Part shown: positions 524-14,367 of the stretch, in pieces
How positions within the stretch are numbered: the stretch's first letter is position 1
Layout of the letters: the number at the start of each line of letters is the position of its first letter
Source of the DNA: a virus
Taxonomy: Duplodnaviria; Heunggongvirae; Uroviricota; Caudoviricetes
Reading direction: 5' to 3' (one strand)
Length of the DNA: 14,367 bases
IMG/VR virus record: IMGVR_UViG_2654587792_000011
Translations under genes and position numbers: made by a program
Notes under the pieces: model-generated
The model's input: only the letters and a program-made list of their open reading frames with translations
Databases searched by the model: none
What the model was told of the DNA's origin: nothing

Positions 524-600
524 TGGCGCGTTGTACTGGATTCGAACCAGTGACCGATTGCTTAGAAGGCAATTGCTCTGTCCGGCTGAGCTAACAACGC
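524..600 (-). tRNA. argO: tRNA-Arg, anticodon UCU (reads AGA)
   Basis: The reverse complement gives a 77-nt cloverleaf: acceptor GCGTTGT/ACAACGC, D-stem GCTC/GAGC, anticodon loop CTTCTAA, T-arm with GGTTCGAAT, 3' CCA. The symbol follows the ileZ-argN-argO convention for phage tRNA trios from memory. Confidence 0.85.
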
Positions 601-613
601 ATGATGCAGATAA

Positions 614-690
614 TGGACCGCCATCGGGGACTTGAACCCCGCGCAGCCAGCTTCGAAGGCTGGCGCTCTTTCCTGATGAGCTAATAGCGG
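614..690 (-). tRNA. argN: tRNA-Arg, anticodon UCG (reads CGA)
   Basis: The reverse complement gives a 77-nt cloverleaf: acceptor CCGCTAT/ATGGCGG (one G-U pair), D-stem GCTC/GAGC, anticodon stem CCAGC/GCTGG with loop CTTCGAA, T-loop GGGGTTCAAGTCCCC, 3' CCA. Symbol by convention only. Confidence 0.75.
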
Positions 691-697
691 TATGTGA

Positions 698-773
698 TGG
701 TGGCCCTTGCTGGATTTGAACCAGCGACCTGGCGATTATGAGTCGCTCGCTCTCACCACTGAGCTAAAGGGCC
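698..773 (-). tRNA. ileZ: tRNA-Ile2-like, anticodon CAT (lysidine type, reads AUA)
   Basis: The reverse complement GGCCCTTTAGCTCAGTGGT...ACTCATAAT...GGTTCAAATCC...GGGCCACCA is a 76-nt cloverleaf closely resembling E. coli ileX-type tRNA. Confidence 0.85.
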
Positions 774-2371: not shown

Positions 2372-2455
2372 CAGGTGTCCATGTCTGCTATTCGCCTCGC
2401 GGTATAGCTTTGCGAAGCGTAGCTGGATTGAAACAGTTTATGCGTAAAAAATCAA
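2372..2455 (-). promoter_or_regulatory. Candidate late promoter and antitermination (pR'/qut-like) region
   Basis: Sits between the Q-like stop and the terminator. On the minus strand there is a TTGATT (-35-like) overlapping the Q stop, then 17 nt, then TTCAAT (-10-like). Assignment is by position and analogy only. Confidence 0.3.
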
Positions 2456-3006
2456 GACATTTTTTGAGCAAACGATTCTCGCATAGGGATGTATAGCGCA
2501 TATTCAGCAACAGCCAACCAATTAGCAATTCGCTTTTCGCATGTACTAAAACACCATTCCGGGTGCACCTCATTCAACAATTCAGCCATTTTGCGTTTAC
2601 TCATCCCCCGCCCTTCGTATCTTTGCCGCAGGATATCAATCAATCCAGGATAACGTGCAAGCGCTTTACTTATCACCCCATCAATGCGTAACGCCTCTGC
2701 ATCAGTACAGTGAGACAACCAGCTCTTCTGTCTGCCAGCGATCATCTCTCGCAAGAATGCTTCCAGCTCTGGTTTATCAATCCCTGACTCCCTGATTCTA
2801 CGCAGGGCTTCATTGATCGCGGTTTTTGTCAGTTTTTTGGATGTCAGCAACTGATTGAACATATTTCCTGGTTTGCCACCACCTATGTACGACCAACGCC
2901 CCCACATCCGTAATTTCCCCTGGATCCAGACGGCTTCCAGCGTTTTTAGACGTAAATGCTCGCCGCTTTTGCCTGTAATTTCCGGGTATATCATATTTAC
3001 GATCAC
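2452..3006 (-). CDS. Putative late-gene antiterminator (Q-like), called by position
   Basis: 184-aa ORF coupled to rusA by a 4-nt overlap and followed by a terminator, which is the usual rusA-Q-pR'-tR' arrangement in lambdoid phages. I cannot verify sequence homology. Confidence 0.45.
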   Translation of the reverse strand: MIVNMIYPEITGKSGEHLRLKTLEAVWIQGKLRMWGRWSYIGGGKPGNMFNQLLTSKKLTKTAINEALRRIRESGIDKPELEAFLREMIAGRQKSWLSHCTDAEALRIDGVISKALARYPGLIDILRQRYEGRGMSKRKMAELLNEVHPEWCFSTCEKRIANWLAVAEYALYIPMRESFAQKMS

Positions 3007-3374: not shown

Positions 3375-4370
3375 TTACCCAAGCACGCCGGTTGCAAAGG
3401 CGTGATCAAGAAAATGAAAAATTAAATCAACCTGGGAACCATGCTTTTCTTCGAATGCCAGCGGATCCGCATGAAGCTCGTTGTGATGTTCCCGACACAG
3501 CGGTAGTGTGAAAATATCGTGGGATTTTGTTCCCATTCCACCCTGACCGTGGCCTATCAGGTGGTGGGCATCATCAGCAGGCTTTCCGCAACATGCGCAC
3601 GGCTGCGTCTTAACCCAGCGCGTGTACTTTTCATTAACCCAGCGGCGACGTTTTGGGCGTAACATAAAAGACTCCGGCGACTCCGGATCCACTTTCAGCG
3701 CCAGCACCTTTTTCGCCTTATCCTGGATGATGCTGGTGGCAGTAACCGAAGGCACAAGGTCACTTTCCCGGGTAACAGACGGCACAACAGGCTTCGGTAA
3801 TCTCAGTGCCTTACGGGCTGCACTTTCCGATAAGGCATCCGCCAGATCATTACGAATCAGCCACCAGCACAGTTCCGGCATTGTCACAACGTGACTGTCG
3901 TCAAAACCGAGCTCCCGACGCACAACAGACAACACCCAGCGGGCACAGTTATCCGTTGCCATTGATTCCAGCCGTTCCGTGAACTGATCGCGCAGCTGGT
4001 TATCGCAGTGCCAGCACAGACGGATTGCGCCCGGAGCGTGTCGCATTGTGGTCATGTTCTCGCTGTGCCAGTTGGAATGAGGCCACTGACAGCCCTTTTC
4101 ACGAAGTAACCAGCTTTCAAGACATTCCACGCCACCAGCACGACGGATCACTGCCTCATTGCGGAACACGGCCCGAACGGCAGGATCATCCGCCAGCGGT
4201 TGTGATGCCGCCGGAACGGCACCACTGGCAAAAGATGAATAACGTTCCGGCTCAGGCTCCAGCAGGACACGCCCCTGCATAAACAGGGGCATCAGCTCTG
4301 AACCGGGCCTGAACAATACGATCCCCATACGCGGGGCAATTTCAGGGGTCAGTAGTGCTCTCACGGTCAC
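3375..4370 (-). CDS. Conserved phage protein with C-terminal HNH-like Cys/His motif (DUF968-like)
   Basis: 331 aa. C-terminal CACCGKP...HHLIGHG...LCREHHNELH looks like a zinc-binding HNH nuclease-like motif. Sits between the helicase and rusA as in many enterobacterial prophages. Confidence 0.55.
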   Translation of the reverse strand: MTVRALLTPEIAPRMGIVLFRPGSELMPLFMQGRVLLEPEPERYSSFASGAVPAASQPLADDPAVRAVFRNEAVIRRAGGVECLESWLLREKGCQWPHSNWHSENMTTMRHAPGAIRLCWHCDNQLRDQFTERLESMATDNCARWVLSVVRRELGFDDSHVVTMPELCWWLIRNDLADALSESAARKALRLPKPVVPSVTRESDLVPSVTATSIIQDKAKKVLALKVDPESPESFMLRPKRRRWVNEKYTRWVKTQPCACCGKPADDAHHLIGHGQGGMGTKSHDIFTLPLCREHHNELHADPLAFEEKHGSQVDLIFHFLDHAFATGVLG

Positions 4371-4415: not shown

Positions 4416-4673
4416 TCACGCAGTAAACTCCTTCACCAGTATTTCAAACTGGCTTACCTGGCCTTCCAGTTCCGCCACGCAATCCACCAGCTCATCCACC
4501 GCCTTTTGTGTGCGGTGTTTTGCCAGCAGCAGATCACGCAGCGCCGGAGTAAGCTGCTTGCGGAGCGTATCCTTTGCCACGCTCGTTTTTTCCATCTGTT
4601 CAGCACAACGAAGCATCTCCTGCGCCTGCCGACGAAGTTGTTCCGGTGAAACAGTGATTGCTCTGTTGTTCAA
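4416..4673 (-). CDS. Hypothetical phage protein
   Basis: 85-aa ORF whose start overlaps the helicase stop by 4 nt. No recognisable motif. Confidence 0.45.
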   Translation of the reverse strand: MNNRAITVSPEQLRRQAQEMLRCAEQMEKTSVAKDTLRKQLTPALRDLLLAKHRTQKAVDELVDCVAELEGQVSQFEILVKEFTA

Positions 4674-6070
4674 AATAAACGCTCCGTTTTACTGCCCGAC
4701 ATGCGGTTATTGCTGTATCTGCGCGGATTGCCCGGCGTCATGGGTGTGGAAAGAACCCGGGCACTCTCCTGGTCCACAGGCAGAAAATGTCCGTTATGAA
4801 AACGCCGGTAAATGGTCCCGAGCGTGCCATTACGCTGTTTCGTGATGTTGATTTCTGCTATGCCTCTGGCCTGAGTTTCCGGGTTGTATACCTCATCCCT
4901 GTAAAGCATCAGAATGATGTCGGCATCCGCCTCGATTTCCCCGGAGTTTTTCAGGTCCGAGTTCATTGGGCGTTTATTGGGTCTGGATTCCACGCCGCGG
5001 GAGAGTTGGCTCAGAGCAATCAGCGGAAAACCGCCGGATTTTGCCAGGCTTTTAAGTCCCTTTGAGATTTCCCCCACAGCAAGGTCGTGACGCCCCGTGC
5101 TGCGGGTTTTAATCAGGCCGAGGTAATCGACCACAACCAGCGCCGTTTCCGGGTGTTTCATCCGGTGGTGCTTCGTGGTTGCACATATCTCATCAATGGT
5201 CAGGTTTGCCTGGTCCACCATCCAGATATTACGCCCCGTCATTCGTCCCACGCCCTGCGAGAAACGCGCCCAGTCTTCATCTTCAAAACGGGCAACAGAC
5301 TTAAGACGGGATACCGGCATTCCACCGGCAGCAGACACCATACGTTCACCAATCTGGATGTTCGCCATCTCCATGGTGAACAGAAGCACGCCATGCCCCT
5401 GCTCAGTCACCTTGTCGATGATGTCCAGCGCAAGTTCGGTTTTCCCCATCGAAGGACGGGCGGCAATGAATACCAGGTCTCCGGGCTCCATACCGCCCGT
5501 TTTTGCGTCCAGTTCATCAATACCGGTCATCAGCGCCCTGGATTTCTCCAGTCCCTGATTGCGGCATTCAACACGGTCGACCACTTCCGGAAGGACATCA
5601 TCAATGTGAACCGGCTGAATGACGCCCTTTCCGGTCGACAGTGAGGCCATCATGTTCTGCGCATCCTTCAGGGCATCCTCGGCTGCTTCACAGGTATACG
5701 CATCACGTAAATTCTGTAATGCTTCAGTCAGTGTTTTTTCTGCATCGCGCAGTGCGGCATTGCGCCGCAACGCTGCGACATAGTGCTCCAGTGAAGACTT
5801 CACCCAGGTTTTGCGTCCGGTGTCGGTAATCACCGGGGCAAGTTCCGGCATCTCATTGCACAGCAGTACGGGGTCAATGACGCCGGATATGCGAGCCTGT
5901 CTGCAAATCCCCGCGTAAATATCCCGGTACTGACGCACAAAAAATACATCCGCCGGAAGTGTGGCCAGAATATCCATCACTTCCGGATCGGCCCCACGCA
6001 GAAAAAACGCACCGATGACAGCGCCTTCCAGGTCATCGTTACGCCATGCCGGGGTGTTCTGGCTGGTCAT
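4670..6070 (-). CDS. Replicative DNA helicase, DnaB family
   Basis: 466 aa. Walker A ARPSMGKT, Walker B-like VVVDYLGL, overall DnaB-like RecA-fold C-terminal domain. Confidence 0.9.
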   Translation of the reverse strand: MTSQNTPAWRNDDLEGAVIGAFFLRGADPEVMDILATLPADVFFVRQYRDIYAGICRQARISGVIDPVLLCNEMPELAPVITDTGRKTWVKSSLEHYVAALRRNAALRDAEKTLTEALQNLRDAYTCEAAEDALKDAQNMMASLSTGKGVIQPVHIDDVLPEVVDRVECRNQGLEKSRALMTGIDELDAKTGGMEPGDLVFIAARPSMGKTELALDIIDKVTEQGHGVLLFTMEMANIQIGERMVSAAGGMPVSRLKSVARFEDEDWARFSQGVGRMTGRNIWMVDQANLTIDEICATTKHHRMKHPETALVVVDYLGLIKTRSTGRHDLAVGEISKGLKSLAKSGGFPLIALSQLSRGVESRPNKRPMNSDLKNSGEIEADADIILMLYRDEVYNPETQARGIAEINITKQRNGTLGTIYRRFHNGHFLPVDQESARVLSTPMTPGNPRRYSNNRMSGSKTERLF

Positions 6071-9610: not shown

Positions 9611-10317
9611 CATCGCTGCCAACCAATAACCTGAAATAACCCCATTTTCGGGTGATACCAGCGAGTCCCTCGCGGTTCTGCTTCCTCCATAACCCGATAA
9701 AAAGCAGCCATAAACGGTTCCACAGCAACAATTGCGCGACGTGACAACAATCCGTCCGGCGTCATGAACTCATGTGTGTCTGTAGGAATTTGATAGGCGT
9801 TCACCAGATTGCGGCATTTATCATCTGACAAACCGGTTTTTGCTTTCAGTTGGCGATATCCGGCATAGCCCTCACGAATAGTGCCCTTTTTAATTTGCTC
9901 GACTGTTTCAGCAACGTGGCTGACTTTTTCTTCCACCTGAGTGATCCGTTTCTGTTGGCGAACGGCTTCAAGAGCCATCGCGGCAACCATTTCGATTTCG
10001 CTCATTGGCTTACGGATCTGTTCTTCCAGTTCGCGCCAGCGATCTACCAGGCGAGCTGTGAATTCAGGACAGAGCTGTGCGACGACAATGATGCTGTCGC
10101 GCTTACCTCGTTCACCTTCGAATACATACGCGCTAGAAAATCGGCGAGGCCCAAGTGATTGTTTATTCTCAATTTCCACAGTCTGTGGAAATTGGATGAT
10201 TCCCTTTTTAGCCAGTGTTTCAATAGTTCTCTTAACACTATCTGGTCGGCTTCCCACCAGCTCTGCGATCTCAACGCTGGTCATGGATGCTTTGCCGTTA
10301 AAAATTGCGGTGTTCAT
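9610..10317 (-). CDS. Phage regulatory protein with Rha/antirepressor-like N-terminal HTH, in the cII position
   Basis: 235 aa. N-terminal MTSVEIAELVGSRPDSVKRTIETLAKKG resembles Rha/KilA-type phage regulator N-termini. Overlaps the cro-like gene by 4 nt. Not CII-like in size or sequence. Confidence 0.45.
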   Translation of the reverse strand: MNTAIFNGKASMTSVEIAELVGSRPDSVKRTIETLAKKGIIQFPQTVEIENKQSLGPRRFSSAYVFEGERGKRDSIIVVAQLCPEFTARLVDRWRELEEQIRKPMSEIEMVAAMALEAVRQQKRITQVEEKVSHVAETVEQIKKGTIREGYAGYRQLKAKTGLSDDKCRNLVNAYQIPTDTHEFMTPDGLLSRRAIVAVEPFMAAFYRVMEEAEPRGTRWYHPKMGLFQVIGWQR

Positions 10318-10604
10318 TGTTTATCTCCTGCGTGTATTCCATCCGCTCTGTGTGGTGAACTTGGATTTAGGCTTTTGCGTAACAAGTTAGGAATTCCATC
10401 TTCAGGGTGAGGATAAAGATCTGGCCTTAAGCCATGAGGCGTAACCTTCCATGCAACTACTTCACATACTCGTAAAACGAAACGAGCAGGAATTGTGCTT
10501 TTTGAAAACCACTGATTCACCGCTTGCGGCGTCACACCAAGATTTCGCGCTATGGCATTTTGCGCAATTAATGCACGAAGTTTGTCGTAATCATTTCCTT
10601 CCAT
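10314..10604 (-). CDS. Cro-like HTH regulator (Cro/YdaS type)
   Basis: 96 aa with HTH LGVTPQAVNQWFSK, divergent from the CI repressor gene across a 130-bp operator-like region. Confidence 0.6.
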   Translation of the reverse strand: MEGNDYDKLRALIAQNAIARNLGVTPQAVNQWFSKSTIPARFVLRVCEVVAWKVTPHGLRPDLYPHPEDGIPNLLRKSLNPSSPHRADGIHAGDKQ

Positions 10605-10737
10605 AACAAAGCACCAATATTAACTTTATAAATCAAGAATACATCAAGTTTAAATTAACATGCAAATTACAAAAGGATCGAATACACTAAAATCAAGTAA
10701 AGATTTATCCTTGTAAAGAAACCCACAGGATTTGGTC
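10605..10737. promoter_or_regulatory. Divergent promoter/operator region between the cro-like and cI genes (oR/pR/pRM-like)
   Basis: AT-rich. ATCAAG occurs three times (10632, 10643, 10692) and GTAAAGA twice (10697, 10713). Individual operators are not resolved. Confidence 0.5.
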
Positions 10738-11427
10738 ATGAAGAACGTCAAAAACACGGAAAATCGAATAGCCGCGATGCTGAAAGCAAAAGGATGGACT
10801 CAGGCTCAACTGGCCCGCAAGTTAGGTGTGAGTGCGCAATCAGTGCAGTACTGGACAACAGGAAAAACATTTCCACGGAGTGATAAGCTCGCGCATTTAT
10901 CAGAGATTAGCGGTTATCCACAATCCTGGTTCTTAGGTGAAGACTCCTCACCAACCTTTTCCTCGCAAGAGAAACACCAGACAAGAACAGATAGCGTCGT
11001 ATTTAATGTCCTTGATGTTGAGTTTAGTTGCGGTGATGGAACTCATGTCCGTGGTGACTTGATAGATGTAGTGCGCTCAATAGAACTTGATCCTGAATAT
11101 GCCCGACGTCTTGTTGGAAATCGGGCATTCAAAAATATAGAAATAGGTAACGCCAGAGGAGACAGTATGGCTCCCACAATCTCACCTGGCGACCTTCTTT
11201 TTCTTGATAAGACAGTAACTTATTTTGATGGCGATGGTATTTATGCATTTTGTTTTGATGGAGAATGCTACGTGAAAAGGCTTCAAAAAATTGGAAGCAA
11301 AATCATGGTGTTATCTGATAACCCCAATTATCAACCATGGAGCATCGAAAAAGAGGGGTTAGCTCTGCTTTATATCCAGTCTAAAGTGATCTCATCAGTA
11401 CCATTCAACATAAACAGATTTGGTTAG
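10738..11427 (+). CDS. cI: CI-type prophage repressor (HTH_XRE plus S24 LexA-like peptidase)
   Basis: N-terminal HTH GWTQAQLARKLGVSAQSVQYW; C-terminal peptidase motifs GDSMAPT (Ser) and YVKRL (Lys). ATG 10738 with AGGA SD is preferred over the track's TTG at 10732. Confidence 0.85.
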   Translation: MKNVKNTENRIAAMLKAKGWTQAQLARKLGVSAQSVQYWTTGKTFPRSDKLAHLSEISGYPQSWFLGEDSSPTFSSQEKHQTRTDSVVFNVLDVEFSCGDGTHVRGDLIDVVRSIELDPEYARRLVGNRAFKNIEIGNARGDSMAPTISPGDLLFLDKTVTYFDGDGIYAFCFDGECYVKRLQKIGSKIMVLSDNPNYQPWSIEKEGLALLYIQSKVISSVPFNINRFG

Positions 11428-11439
11428 TCTTTGATTTTA

Positions 11440-11461
11440 ACGGGCTTTGCCCGTTTTTTTT
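11440..11461 (+). terminator. Intrinsic terminator after cI
   Basis: Stem ACGGGC/GCCCGT with 3-nt loop (11440-11454), followed by eight T through 11461. Confidence 0.6.
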
Positions 11462-11491
11462 CTGCCTGAAATATACGATATCAATTTTTTC

Positions 11492-11543
11492 TTGACAGCC
11501 TGTTTCCCAAAACATAATATCGCACCATCAATTATAACTTGAT
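11492..11543 (+). promoter_or_regulatory. Strong sigma70 promoter with operator-like palindrome at the start site
   Basis: TTGACA (11492-11497), 17-nt spacer, TAATAT (11515-11520). Palindrome ATCAA-N7-TTGAT at 11527-11543 overlaps the predicted start. Confidence 0.55.
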
Positions 11544-11573
11544 TTGATTCAATTTAAAATTGTTGGCGGATAT

Positions 11574-12122
11574 ATGAAGACACTAAAAGCAACTCCAGAA
11601 ACAACTAATTTTATCAACTGCGGCTGTGTTACGCTTAAGGGCTTAGAACTTGATTCCTTTGCATTAAATATTGCAAATTTGCTAAGTGCTGTACGCACAT
11701 TCCATCTTCTGGATTGTGCTCGCTCAAAGGAACTGGGCATTGAGGTAATGGAATTTATCCATGAATATGCTCTATCTGCTGCTTCTCCTGCACAACAAAA
11801 ACAATCCTTCCCTGAAAGCTGGCTGGTTAACCTTCGCACCCAACGCGAAGCCTGCGGCTTAACAACCGCCGAACTCGCCAGGCTGCTCGATCTCGATGAA
11901 GAAATTATCATCCAGTGGGAGAGCGGAGAGTATGAACCAACTATCAGTATGCTTATCCCACTGGCAAATATTCTTGGCTGCGATCCGATGTGCCTGTTAA
12001 CTGGTGAGGTTACTCCTCCGGAGCAACCAAAAAGTGAGGAGCAGCAACACCATGACGCATCTCAACAAGTTTGCCCCTTATCTCGCGAAGCTCTTCTGCG
12101 GAAGAACCAATACCAATGGTGA
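11574..12122 (+). CDS. Two-domain protein: unknown N-terminal domain plus C-terminal XRE-family HTH
   Basis: Start taken at ATG 11574, because the track's TTG 11544 has no SD and lies too near the start site. HTH GLTTAELARLLDLDEEIIIQWESGE. N-terminal domain is homologous to the C-terminus of the next protein. The 3' end is uncertain because of overlapping alternative frames. Confidence 0.5.
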   Translation: MKTLKATPETTNFINCGCVTLKGLELDSFALNIANLLSAVRTFHLLDCARSKELGIEVMEFIHEYALSAASPAQQKQSFPESWLVNLRTQREACGLTTAELARLLDLDEEIIIQWESGEYEPTISMLIPLANILGCDPMCLLTGEVTPPEQPKSEEQQHHDASQQVCPLSREALLRKNQYQW

Positions 12123-12250
12123 CATAATCGCCGCTTCGCCCTTCAAGGTACATGCGAACATTTTTATCAATCATTGCGGAAACAGTCTCAATATGAAAAC
12201 ACTTCTGAGACTCGCTATATAGCAGAACATATAAGTCAGCTGAGGAAGCC

Positions 12251-12616
12251 ATGAAAAAGTTCGAAAACATAACTGTTCTCCATGTTGATGACTTTGATTA
12301 TACAAACCCGGAACTTCTCCCGGAGGTTGTAAAGGCAATGGATGTTGCCGATATAGTGATTAGAGAAAAGAGAATTGTCAAAAACAGGCTCGCATGCACT
12401 TCAGGAGCAATGACAGAAACAACCTCACAGCAAGATAATTACGAAGGCATTTGTCTGGAGCCTGATTCATTTGCGGTAAATGTTTATCATTTATTGCATG
12501 CAACACAGGTATTACATATGTCCAGTAATCACGAAACGAAAACACTCGGCAGCGAAATTCTGAGTTTTGCATGTGAGTATACAAAAGCTGCTGCCGAAAA
12601 AGAATTAGCGCAATAA
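12251..12616 (+). CDS. Hypothetical protein whose C-terminal domain is paralogous to the N-terminal domain of the 11574-12122 product
   Basis: 121 aa with good SD GAGGA (12242-12246). About 42% identity over a gapless 48-aa stretch (LEPDSFAVNVYHLL... vs LELDSFALNIANLL...). Confidence 0.55.
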   Translation: MKKFENITVLHVDDFDYTNPELLPEVVKAMDVADIVIREKRIVKNRLACTSGAMTETTSQQDNYEGICLEPDSFAVNVYHLLHATQVLHMSSNHETKTLGSEILSFACEYTKAAAEKELAQ

Positions 12617-12694
12617 CAACAAATATGCCCTGAACGTTTATTGCGGTTTTATCGCCGGGGATTGTTACAACCTTAATCCACAGGAGGCTTTATT

Positions 12695-12808
12695 GTGACT
12701 TTTATAAAGAATATGGCATCACACAAGACCGCCTGCCTTATTGCACAATACGGTGAAAATTACATGCATATTGCCTGCTTATTTCTGCGTAAAGCATACG
12801 GGAGATAA
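12695..12808 (+). CDS. Small ORF (37 aa) with strong SD, coupled to the downstream gene
   Basis: AGGAGG (12683-12688), 6-nt spacer, GTG 12695; product MTFIKNMASHKTACLIAQYGENYMHIACLFLRKAYGR; stop TAA 12806-12808 two nt before the next ATG. Too short for the ORF track. Confidence 0.3.
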   Translation: MTFIKNMASHKTACLIAQYGENYMHIACLFLRKAYGR

Positions 12809-12810
12809 TA

Positions 12811-13023
12811 ATGCATCAGAAAACAGCAGAACACGAACAAACCAGAATATTGCTGACCATCAAAAACGGGAAAGTAATATTCATTCTCCATGTTCATGAC
12901 GATGAACTTGTAGGAACTCTTTCAACATTCCTGTTTATTGCAGAAAAGGCAGGATATGACGTTATTGCACCAGCAGATGAAGATGAAGATGAAGATGAAG
13001 ATGAAGATGAAGATGAGGAATAA
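12811..13023 (+). CDS. Small protein with C-terminal (Asp-Glu)7 acidic tail
   Basis: 70 aa with SD GGGAGA (12800-12805). Hydrophobic beta-like core followed by the tail DEDEDEDEDEDEDEE. Confidence 0.55.
   Translation: MHQKTAEHEQTRILLTIKNGKVIFILHVHDDELVGTLSTFLFIAEKAGYDVIAPADEDEDEDEDEDEDEE
12976..13017 (+). repeat. In-frame hexanucleotide tandem repeat (GATGAA)6 plus GATGAG
   Basis: Seven consecutive hexamers read directly from the sequence; they encode the (DE)7 tail. Confidence 0.9.
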
Positions 13024-13028
13024 ATATC

Positions 13029-13610
13029 ATGCAATACGATGAATTCCAGGCTGAAGCAACAGCCAATGGTATACGAACTGGCAGTATGACGATTGATTAT
13101 CACGACGCCATACGTCGTCTGGATGCCGGAGAATTCGATACTCCTAATGTGCGAGGTTTACGTATCCTTCAGTGTCTGGCGCAAGCCGACGAAGCAGGAT
13201 TACTGGGTAAACTTCCGGTTGAGATGAAGGTTGCTCAGTGGCGATGGTTGTATGTGACGACATTCATCAACGAAGAAGAAGACAAGAACGGCACAATTGA
13301 TATCCTGAATGAACACGGAACAACTGAACACGCCGTGGTATATAACGGGATGTATGGGTTTATGACGATATATCCCGGCCCCATTCGATTTGCCTTACAA
13401 CAGTATATTGAATGGAATTTAATTCAAAAATACGGCGAAGCTGAAGGAATGGGAAGAGCGCTGTTTCTTTATCAGAAAATGCTCACTACTTCCCCTGATA
13501 AAGGTTTCATTCTTTCAGATATGGGTCGAGAAGGGCTTGAAATCCTTCTGGATGAAATTATTAACGAAATGAATACTCATGGCATGCAATCCGAAACAGA
13601 TATTAAGTAA
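13029..13610 (+). CDS. Hypothetical protein, no recognisable motif
   Basis: 193-aa ORF starting 5 nt after the preceding stop, with GAGGAA upstream. Confidence 0.55.
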   Translation: MQYDEFQAEATANGIRTGSMTIDYHDAIRRLDAGEFDTPNVRGLRILQCLAQADEAGLLGKLPVEMKVAQWRWLYVTTFINEEEDKNGTIDILNEHGTTEHAVVYNGMYGFMTIYPGPIRFALQQYIEWNLIQKYGEAEGMGRALFLYQKMLTTSPDKGFILSDMGREGLEILLDEIINEMNTHGMQSETDIK

Positions 13611-13620
13611 AAGGGACCAC

Positions 13621-13806
13621 ATGACCGTTATCGAGTATATCCAGGAAAATCCAGATTGCAGTAGAGAAGATATATCCCTCGCACTTGGAAGAAGCGCAAC
13701 TTCTATCAGTAATGAATTATCACGGTTATTGTGGAATGGGTTAATAGTACGAACTGGAGAAAAAAACAAAATGATTCTGTACTGCGTAAACAATCTGCCG
13801 TTTTGA
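13621..13806 (+). CDS. Small winged-helix-like protein whose stop codon is supplied by the IS terminus
   Basis: ATG 13621 with SD AAGGGA (13611-13616), 61 aa. The stop TGA 13804-13806 is the first three bases of the IS inverted repeat, so the native C-terminus may have been replaced. Confidence 0.45.
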   Translation: MTVIEYIQENPDCSREDISLALGRSATSISNELSRLLWNGLIVRTGEKNKMILYCVNNLPF

Positions 13807-13875
13807 AGTGGCACACTGAATTTGGCCACCTGAACAGAGGTGATATGCTCACCTCAGAACAACACAGGTGCTCCA

Positions 13876-14367
<492 letters not shown>

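Follow-up and report, generated by a model that had tools for sequence, protein, structure and literature searches.

How can a helix-turn-helix (HTH) regulator and its neighbor come to share a domain in a phage operon, and what would the shared part do there? The question is raised by a stretch of 14,367 nucleotides, called the window here, from a virus of the Caudoviricetes (IMG/VR record IMGVR_UViG_2654587792_000011). On its plus strand, the gene for an HTH protein (gene A, positions 11574–12122) is followed by a second gene (gene B, 12251–12616), and the initial annotation had claimed that one domain is used twice, at the N-terminus of the first protein and at the C-terminus of the second. 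The common two-helix domain is referred to as X. The window represents the early region of a lambdoid, Shiga toxin (Stx)-phage-like E. coli prophage, whose region of interest shares 99.9% identity with E. coli O55:H7 RM12579 and 98.8% with phage PhiR49_2.

BLASTP aligned residues 24–70 of A with residues 69–115 of B without a gap (20 of 47 residues identical, 29 of 47 positive, E = 9e-10 in a single comparison). The Smith-Waterman score of A against B was 94. Shuffled controls (n = 5000) had a mean of 28 with a standard deviation of 4.7 and a maximum of 57 (Gumbel p ~1e-8), and shuffling of the two domains alone resulted in p ~2e-10. AlphaFold2 predicted a two-helix hairpin in both proteins, with a predicted local distance difference test (pLDDT) score of ~90. 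The hairpin comprises helices 26–45 and 49–70 in A and helices 71–89 and 94–120 in B, in register with the sequence alignment. Judged by alignment and predicted structure, A and B carry a true paralogous domain, a two-helix hairpin of ~50 residues. The DNA under the alignment (141 aligned bases) is just 52% identical, with 47% identity at third codon positions, which argues for an old duplication that was kept at the protein level and not for recent gene conversion. The claim of a domain used twice was thus borne out by the alignment, the shuffled controls and the predicted hairpins, and it generalizes across enterobacterial prophages. Two details given along with it did not hold. An ETT motif shared just upstream of the domain lies within predicted disorder, is offset by one residue between the two proteins and adds nothing statistically. 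A likeness described as "LHV-DD" between the N-terminus of B and an acidic-tailed protein encoded further downstream was not significant (BLASTP E = 7.3) and is rejected as chance.

Gene A encodes 182 amino acids from its ATG, belongs to PHROG 4836 (4e-77) and is named "helix-turn-helix domain-containing protein" in RefSeq. According to the AlphaFold2 model, residues 1–22 are disordered and X (residues 24–70, positions 11643–11783) is connected by a disordered linker (74–79) to a five-helix HTH_3 domain (residues ~86–143, positions 11829–12002; Pfam HTH_3, 3e-10), which is followed by a disordered tail (157–182). Besides the HTH, X is the sole structured part of this model. The HTH is of the DicA/P22 C2 type. 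In a Foldseek search, the top match was P22 C2 with a template modeling (TM) score of 0.88 on the target; the best structural matches were P22 C2, C.AhdI, 434 Cro, and SinR, with target TM scores of 0.8–0.9 for P22 C2, 434 Cro, and SinR. Against the DicA model NF007257, A scored 34.9 bits over its HTH portion only, below the curated cut-off of 101, and a relative with three HTH domains (P0060) reached 122.8 bits via its repeated HTH domains.

The C-terminal tail of A (residues ~147–182, positions 12012–12122) was modeled with a pLDDT below 50. It is missing from other alleles, which end at 142–153 amino acids, and it overlaps a minus-strand open reading frame (ORF) whose conservation from E. 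coli to Klebsiella (score 234) is not shared by the tails of the regulators (score 29). As other alleles are shorter, and as the antisense ORF is conserved and the tails are not, the last ~35 residues of A are probably unselected read-through antisense to the minus-strand gene, and not functional.

Gene B encodes 121 amino acids (PHROG 5451, 4e-83), an acidic helical and small alpha/beta protein. Its first 50 residues (positions 12251–12400) form a small alpha/beta module, termed E, for which AlphaFold2 predicted strands at residues 9–12, 35–38, and 41–45 and a helix at 24–32 (pLDDT 86–92). The linker between E and X (residues 50–67) is predicted to be disordered, and X itself occupies residues 69–120 (positions 12455–12610) and corresponds to the standalone proteins of PHROG 4587. 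The start of B is annotated in two ways. The RefSeq annotation, generated by the Prokaryotic Genome Annotation Pipeline (PGAP), comprises the X part of 68 amino acids, starting at an internal ATG at 12410 that is preceded by AGGAG, whereas the GenBank entry of PhiR49_2 has the 121-residue form. Since E is conserved in frame across genera, is preceded by a good Shine-Dalgarno sequence, is modeled with confidence and recurs at the N-terminus of HTH proteins, the 121-residue form appears credible. Two isoforms, E-X and X-only, may be made from the gene. The ratio of nonsynonymous to synonymous substitution rates (dN/dS) in B was 0.08–0.21 for X, indicating purifying selection, and ~0.5 for the less constrained E.

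X did not match any family in Pfam, NCBIfam, or PADLOC; in Pfam, no match at E ≤ 1 was found for the N-terminal domain of A, for B, or for 29 X sequences. A search of the PDB sequences with an X profile returned nothing meaningful, the best match being a dynein coiled coil (E = 0.008). The standalone X proteins match PHROG 4587 at 1e-35 and residues 57–121 of B match it at 3e-28. PHROG 4836 carries the label "CII-like regulator", and 5451 and 4587 are listed with unknown function. The three are kept as separate families, joined only by weak cross-hits of 8e-5 to 9e-4, and the PHROGs hold no record of a shared domain. Like X, E has no matching family in Pfam, NCBIfam, PADLOC, or the PDB sequences, and on this basis X and E are two uncharacterized modules which are newly defined here.

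Searched exhaustively with HMMER, 1.84 billion representative proteins yielded 52 family members. In a separate homologue search, all source names returned were Enterobacteriaceae (Escherichia, Salmonella, Klebsiella, Citrobacter, Raoultella, and Enterobacter). Among the sequences inspected, X was found alone (58–72 amino acids), behind E (E-X, ~121), in front of one HTH (X-HTH, 132–177) and in front of two (X-HTH-HTH, 230–280). E also heads proteins with two HTH domains (E-HTH-HTH, 195–307 amino acids; P0054, P0058, and P0062) as well as other C-termini, and both modules occur in a single X-HTH-E-HTH-HTH fusion, the three-HTH relative mentioned above. At the same position in phage PPyecE_EH1910, an X-HTH-HTH regulator is followed 6 nucleotides on by an X-only protein of 66 amino acids, a diverged pair. 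Klebsiella prophages contain two free X paralogues in tandem, the stop codon of one overlapping the start codon of the next. The second of these is a divergent X-like gene for 61 amino acids (3689–3874 in locus L084 and 3704–3889 in L085), which overlaps the first by 4 nucleotides. Behind the tandem lies a third family of small helical proteins with a "YF.DKD" motif, fused behind E in locus L090.

Free X proteins and regulator N-domains interleave by similarity. In several cases, a free and a tethered X taken from different genomes score 149–204 against each other, among them the regulator P0069 with the free P0086 (203) and P0080 with P0079 (204), compared to 94 for the window's own pair. X has therefore switched repeatedly between the free state and tethering to an HTH. 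The linker/HTH boundary of A, at about position 11832 of the window, is marked by a sharp mosaic junction, and a further one lies at about 12000; both coincide with domain boundaries, and the DNA coding for the HTH is nearly identical across phages. Matches to the stretch were found in 321 of 5426 complete E. coli genomes, only 48 of which have the full pair; some matches comprise the HTH only, and many genomes align only from query position 403, which is position 11832. By sequence comparison, X is a mobile, shuffled module at the early-left regulators of enterobacterial lambdoid prophages, just downstream of cI.

The genomic position of the pair is informative as to when it would be expressed. 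A cI-type repressor gene (10738–11427, plus strand; Pfam Peptidase_S24 4e-17, HTH_3 5e-8; cI in PhiR49_2) precedes A. Just 3' of it lies an intrinsic-terminator-like structure on the plus strand (11439–11465), a hairpin (11439–11455) with a 7-bp stem including 5 GC pairs, followed by the T-run TTTTTTTT. A strong, sigma-70-like promoter resembling PL (TTGACA-17-TAATAT, 11492–11520, plus strand; region 11480–11564) is located between this structure and A. It is flanked by operator-like sites at 11480–11496, at 11527–11543 (a perfect 17-bp palindrome, ATCAATTATAACTTGAT) and at 11548–11564. Three more sites of the form ATCAA-N7-TTGAT with 1–2 mismatches, starting at 10613, 10643, and 10692, occupy the cro-cI spacer in an OR-like arrangement (10613–10708). 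In total, the two spacers contain 6 sites in 273 bp, compared to 0.33 expected from composition-matched shuffles, and none of 5000 shuffles reached 6. The hexamers of the promoter and the operator-like sites are kept in PPyecE_EH1910, whose cI is related. On the other side of the cro-cI spacer, a cro-like gene with a YdaS/P22 Cro-type HTH (10314–10604, minus strand; Pfam YdaS_toxin 1.4e-12, P22_Cro 1e-4; Cro in PhiR49_2) is the first gene of the rightward early operon. The promoter at 11492–11520 with its sites would correspond to PL/OL, and A and B would be the first genes of the early-left operon. Because the PL-like promoter bears the same operator-like sites as the cI-cro spacer, A and B are probably repressed by cI and silent in the lysogen, and made right after derepression or infection.

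What the two copies of X may do together is suggested by the residues that are conserved between them. In the alignments, the positions conserved in helix 1 are F29/I33/L36/V40/F43 (a/d-type), flanked by A30/L37/H44 and N32/A39, and helix 2 appears to carry two hydrophobic stripes. An Asn (N32 in A, N77 in B) and a Tyr (Y65 in A, Y110 in B) are nearly invariant. As this conserved hydrophobic surface exceeds what one hairpin buries, X most likely pairs into four-helix bundles. X would then be a protein-protein interaction module and most likely the oligomerization determinant of these regulators. In A, it is tethered by a flexible linker to the predicted DicA/P22 C2-type HTH; in B, it lacks a DNA-binding domain and lies behind E, a second regulator-type head. 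B may form mixed oligomers with X-headed regulators and, via E, possibly with E-headed ones too, and such mixed oligomers would change the valency of the regulator on DNA, as SinI does with SinR and as do Id proteins and microProteins. The targets could be the phage's own A or the regulators of co-resident related prophages. From this arrangement, we infer oligomerization, contact between A and B, and the direction of its effect. Heterodimerization or mimicry via X, as proposed in the initial annotation, is plausible by analogy. That B is a modulator of HTH regulators, acting through mixed oligomers formed by X and possibly by E, is our preferred reading, put forward tentatively and with somewhat less than even confidence.

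The comparison of 83 loci (the window, two GenBank phage loci, and 80 IMG/VR loci), 64 of which contain two X matches, revealed several points that weigh against a fixed partnership. B is 91–100% identical across E. coli loci and the HTH of the regulator is likewise nearly invariant, while the N-domain of the regulator falls into at least seven classes, which switch in step with the cI type. Classes 3 and 4 can be recognized as X-like. The N-domains of classes 2, 5, and 6 are not detectably so (hhalign probability 0.2–2.7%), which gives no support to these classes being very divergent X domains. As B is invariant while the N-domain class switches, the free X allele does not co-vary with the tethered one. 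Furthermore, prophages of Klebsiella and Citrobacter have a free X directly after cI and no X-HTH gene, and thus X can do without a tethered partner in cis. A and B are separated by a minus-strand gene, and their co-expression is therefore an assumption. The comparison across phages does not show an obligate cognate A-B pair, and these data weaken the simplest version of the proposal, a cognate heterodimer. The idea that each N-domain class has a standalone downstream paralogue of its own was also discarded, as the class-2 N-domain and the downstream protein of 128 amino acids in locus L083 did not align. The linkage of cI type and N-domain is the same for class 6 in E. coli (L034) and Klebsiella (L084 and L090).

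These points have to be weighed together with the other explanations of a shared domain. X might bind a common third party, another host or phage protein, in which case free X, E-X, and X-HTH would act independently, the HTH version at DNA, and A and B would never touch. Such a target would account for a free X as the first gene after cI where an X-HTH gene is lacking, and for a B that stays the same while the N-domain changes, even to classes that are not X-like; moreover, host takeover is a frequent role of small acidic helical proteins encoded by the first genes of early operons. However, a candidate target did not emerge, X is recurrently fused only to HTH domains and to E, as expected of a regulator-intrinsic module, and X-X genes in tandem as well as the wide hydrophobic stripes agree at least as well with self- or hetero-association. 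On balance, we regard a third-party target as rather unlikely, if still a serious competitor. Alternatively, X could homo-oligomerize each protein separately, the copies stemming from module shuffling at a recombination hotspot beside the immunity region and, at 43% identity, no longer cross-reacting. The residues common to A and B sit on helix faces that are expected to be interfaces, X in B is under strong purifying selection, and a protein such as E-X, which combines two N-terminal modules of regulator type but lacks an HTH, has no evident task by itself, all of which speaks against paralogy without coupling. The age of the duplication (52% nucleotide identity, 47% at third positions), the junctions exactly at domain boundaries, the extensive shuffling of X, E, HTH, and other hairpins, and the lack of co-variation speak for it, and we consider it unlikely, and less probable than a third-party target.

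A further view is that X-only and E-X proteins are phage "microProteins" which would poison X- or E-headed regulators of co-resident or superinfecting lambdoid phages, the immunity-linked diversification of N-domains beside a nearly identical HTH being the trace of an arms race. It would explain an invariant B beside variable N-domains, free X without an X-HTH gene, and the repeated swaps between free and tethered forms; nevertheless, we hold it to be improbable. Antitoxin-like titration, one version offered in the initial annotation, would make the HTH protein the antitoxin-like regulator of a toxin-antitoxin or defense pair, titrated by its neighbor. The HTH_3 domain of A has weak, sub-threshold matches to the HipB, MqsA, and RmrA models, but these are generic to HTH domains, and all scores against antitoxin models are far below the curated cut-offs. 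B, the acidic protein, a protein of 193 amino acids, and the minus-strand ORF did not match any toxin, nuclease, kinase, or effector in Pfam or PADLOC; B is acidic and helical with a small alpha/beta part, and the genes occupy a PL-operon position behind operator-like sites. Titration of this kind is therefore unsupported and such a pair very improbable. The sensor/regulator version found no support either, as no ligand-binding fold was present. Chance similarity of two helical segments of like composition, both rich in alanine and leucine, has a negligible probability: none of 10,000 shuffles approached the observed score, whether of the proteins or of the domains alone, the BLASTP E-value was composition-adjusted, and profile searches join both families through many intermediates. 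Modulation of HTH regulators by B through mixed oligomers remains the reading that we prefer, with the reservation expressed above.

The minus-strand gene between A and B (12010–12270; 86 amino acids; PHROG 6104 of unknown function, 1.4e-49) overlaps the last 113 nucleotides of A and the first 20 nucleotides of B, with which it starts head-to-head. Its Shine-Dalgarno sequence GGAG lies inside the coding region of B. The product is matched from end to end in a Klebsiella prophage (~47% identity, the score of 234 given above), and the gene occurs in 61 of 89 loci but lacks an annotation in RefSeq RM12579. It is possibly a moron whose expression runs antisense to the PL-like transcript. Conserved spacers of the left arm, such as 12617–12810, are candidate DNA targets of A. 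Downstream of B, the acidic-tailed protein of 70 amino acids (12811–13023, plus strand; PHROG 340) ends in a run of alternating Asp and Glu (DEDEDEDEDEDEDEE) and has weak matches (1e-4 to 2e-3) to C-terminal portions of PHROG "anti-repressor" families; locus L090 has a comparable acidic-tailed gene at 4608–4808. Directly after a small MarR-like gene (13579–13806), an IS3-family transposase OrfA (13840–14178, plus strand; Pfam HTH_Tnp_1 7e-14) leads to the end of the window. At the same position, PhiR49_2 and RM12579 continue with more early-left genes (DUF4752 and Ea22-like), and so the left operon is probably interrupted by an insertion sequence in this copy.

The other minus-strand genes encode two Rha-family regulators, O-, DnaC-, and DnaB-like replication proteins, RusA, a Q-like antiterminator (DUF1133/Phage_antitermQ, 2452–3006), a DNA methylase (823–1872), and three tRNAs. 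The tRNA genes (Arg-tct, Arg-tcg, and a Met-type cat; 524–773, minus strand) are situated downstream of the antiterminator and methylase genes. In Stx phages, this order of tRNAs, Q-like antiterminator, and methylase is the arrangement found upstream of the stx genes.

If B does modulate HTH regulators via X, a SinI/SinR- or microProtein-like circuit would open the early-left operon of prophages of E. coli, Salmonella, and Klebsiella. This group of prophages is widespread and includes relatives of Shiga-toxin phages, the step concerned decides between induction and lysogeny, and genes of the A and B type are presently listed as "hypothetical". The locus also provides a clean example of domain shuffling at the edge of an immunity region, with a well-supported paralogy and a mechanism that is plausible by analogy.

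Among known phage regulators, the label of PHROG 4836 would place A with lambda CII. This label is unsupported: A has no match to Pfam Phage_CII, as only families of the HTH_3 clan match at E ≤ 0.1, and unlike the gene for lambda CII, which lies in the rightward operon after cro, gene A follows cI on the same strand, behind the PL-like promoter, and hence on the cI/PL side. A literature lead for "CII-like" proteins, the Gifsy-1/RtcR paper, concerns unrelated genes. A paper on the Stx-phage regulatory region (Eru), as far as a term search of it showed, deals with genes located on the side of cI where replication is encoded, and the A and B genes do not appear in it. With DicA, P22 C2, and the 434 repressor, A and its relatives have the HTH in common, which is recognized by the HTH_3 and DicA subfamily models and whose structure can be superposed on that of P22 C2. 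The order of domains is reversed, as in those proteins the HTH is N-terminal and an oligomerization or S24 domain is C-terminal.

In eukaryotes, Id proteins relate to basic helix-loop-helix (bHLH) factors, and plant microProteins such as LITTLE ZIPPER to their own families, in a similar manner: a small protein keeps the interaction domain only and titrates or re-wires a family of DNA-binding proteins. Their folds are unrelated to X and their action is experimentally established, whereas for B such a role is deduced. The closest functional analogue of A and B appears to be SinR/SinI, in which the shared helices are the heterodimer interface and SinI abolishes DNA binding by SinR (PMC3163267). 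A and B are not members of that family, because X does not belong to the SinI family (PF08671; no Pfam match at E ≤ 1) and lies N-terminal, not C-terminal, to the HTH. In addition, the hairpin of X is longer (~20 and 25 residues), B has the extra module E, the genes reside in a prophage early-left operon of Enterobacteriaceae, and the comparative data lack cognate co-variation. In structure, the HTH of A is close to those of SinR, P22 C2, and 434 Cro. The likeness also lies in the arrangement, from which a heteromer of A and B is proposed by analogy: as in SinR/SinI, and in SlrR/SlrA of Bacillus subtilis, an Xre/434-Cro-type HTH regulator adjoins a small HTH-less paralogue of its helical domain.

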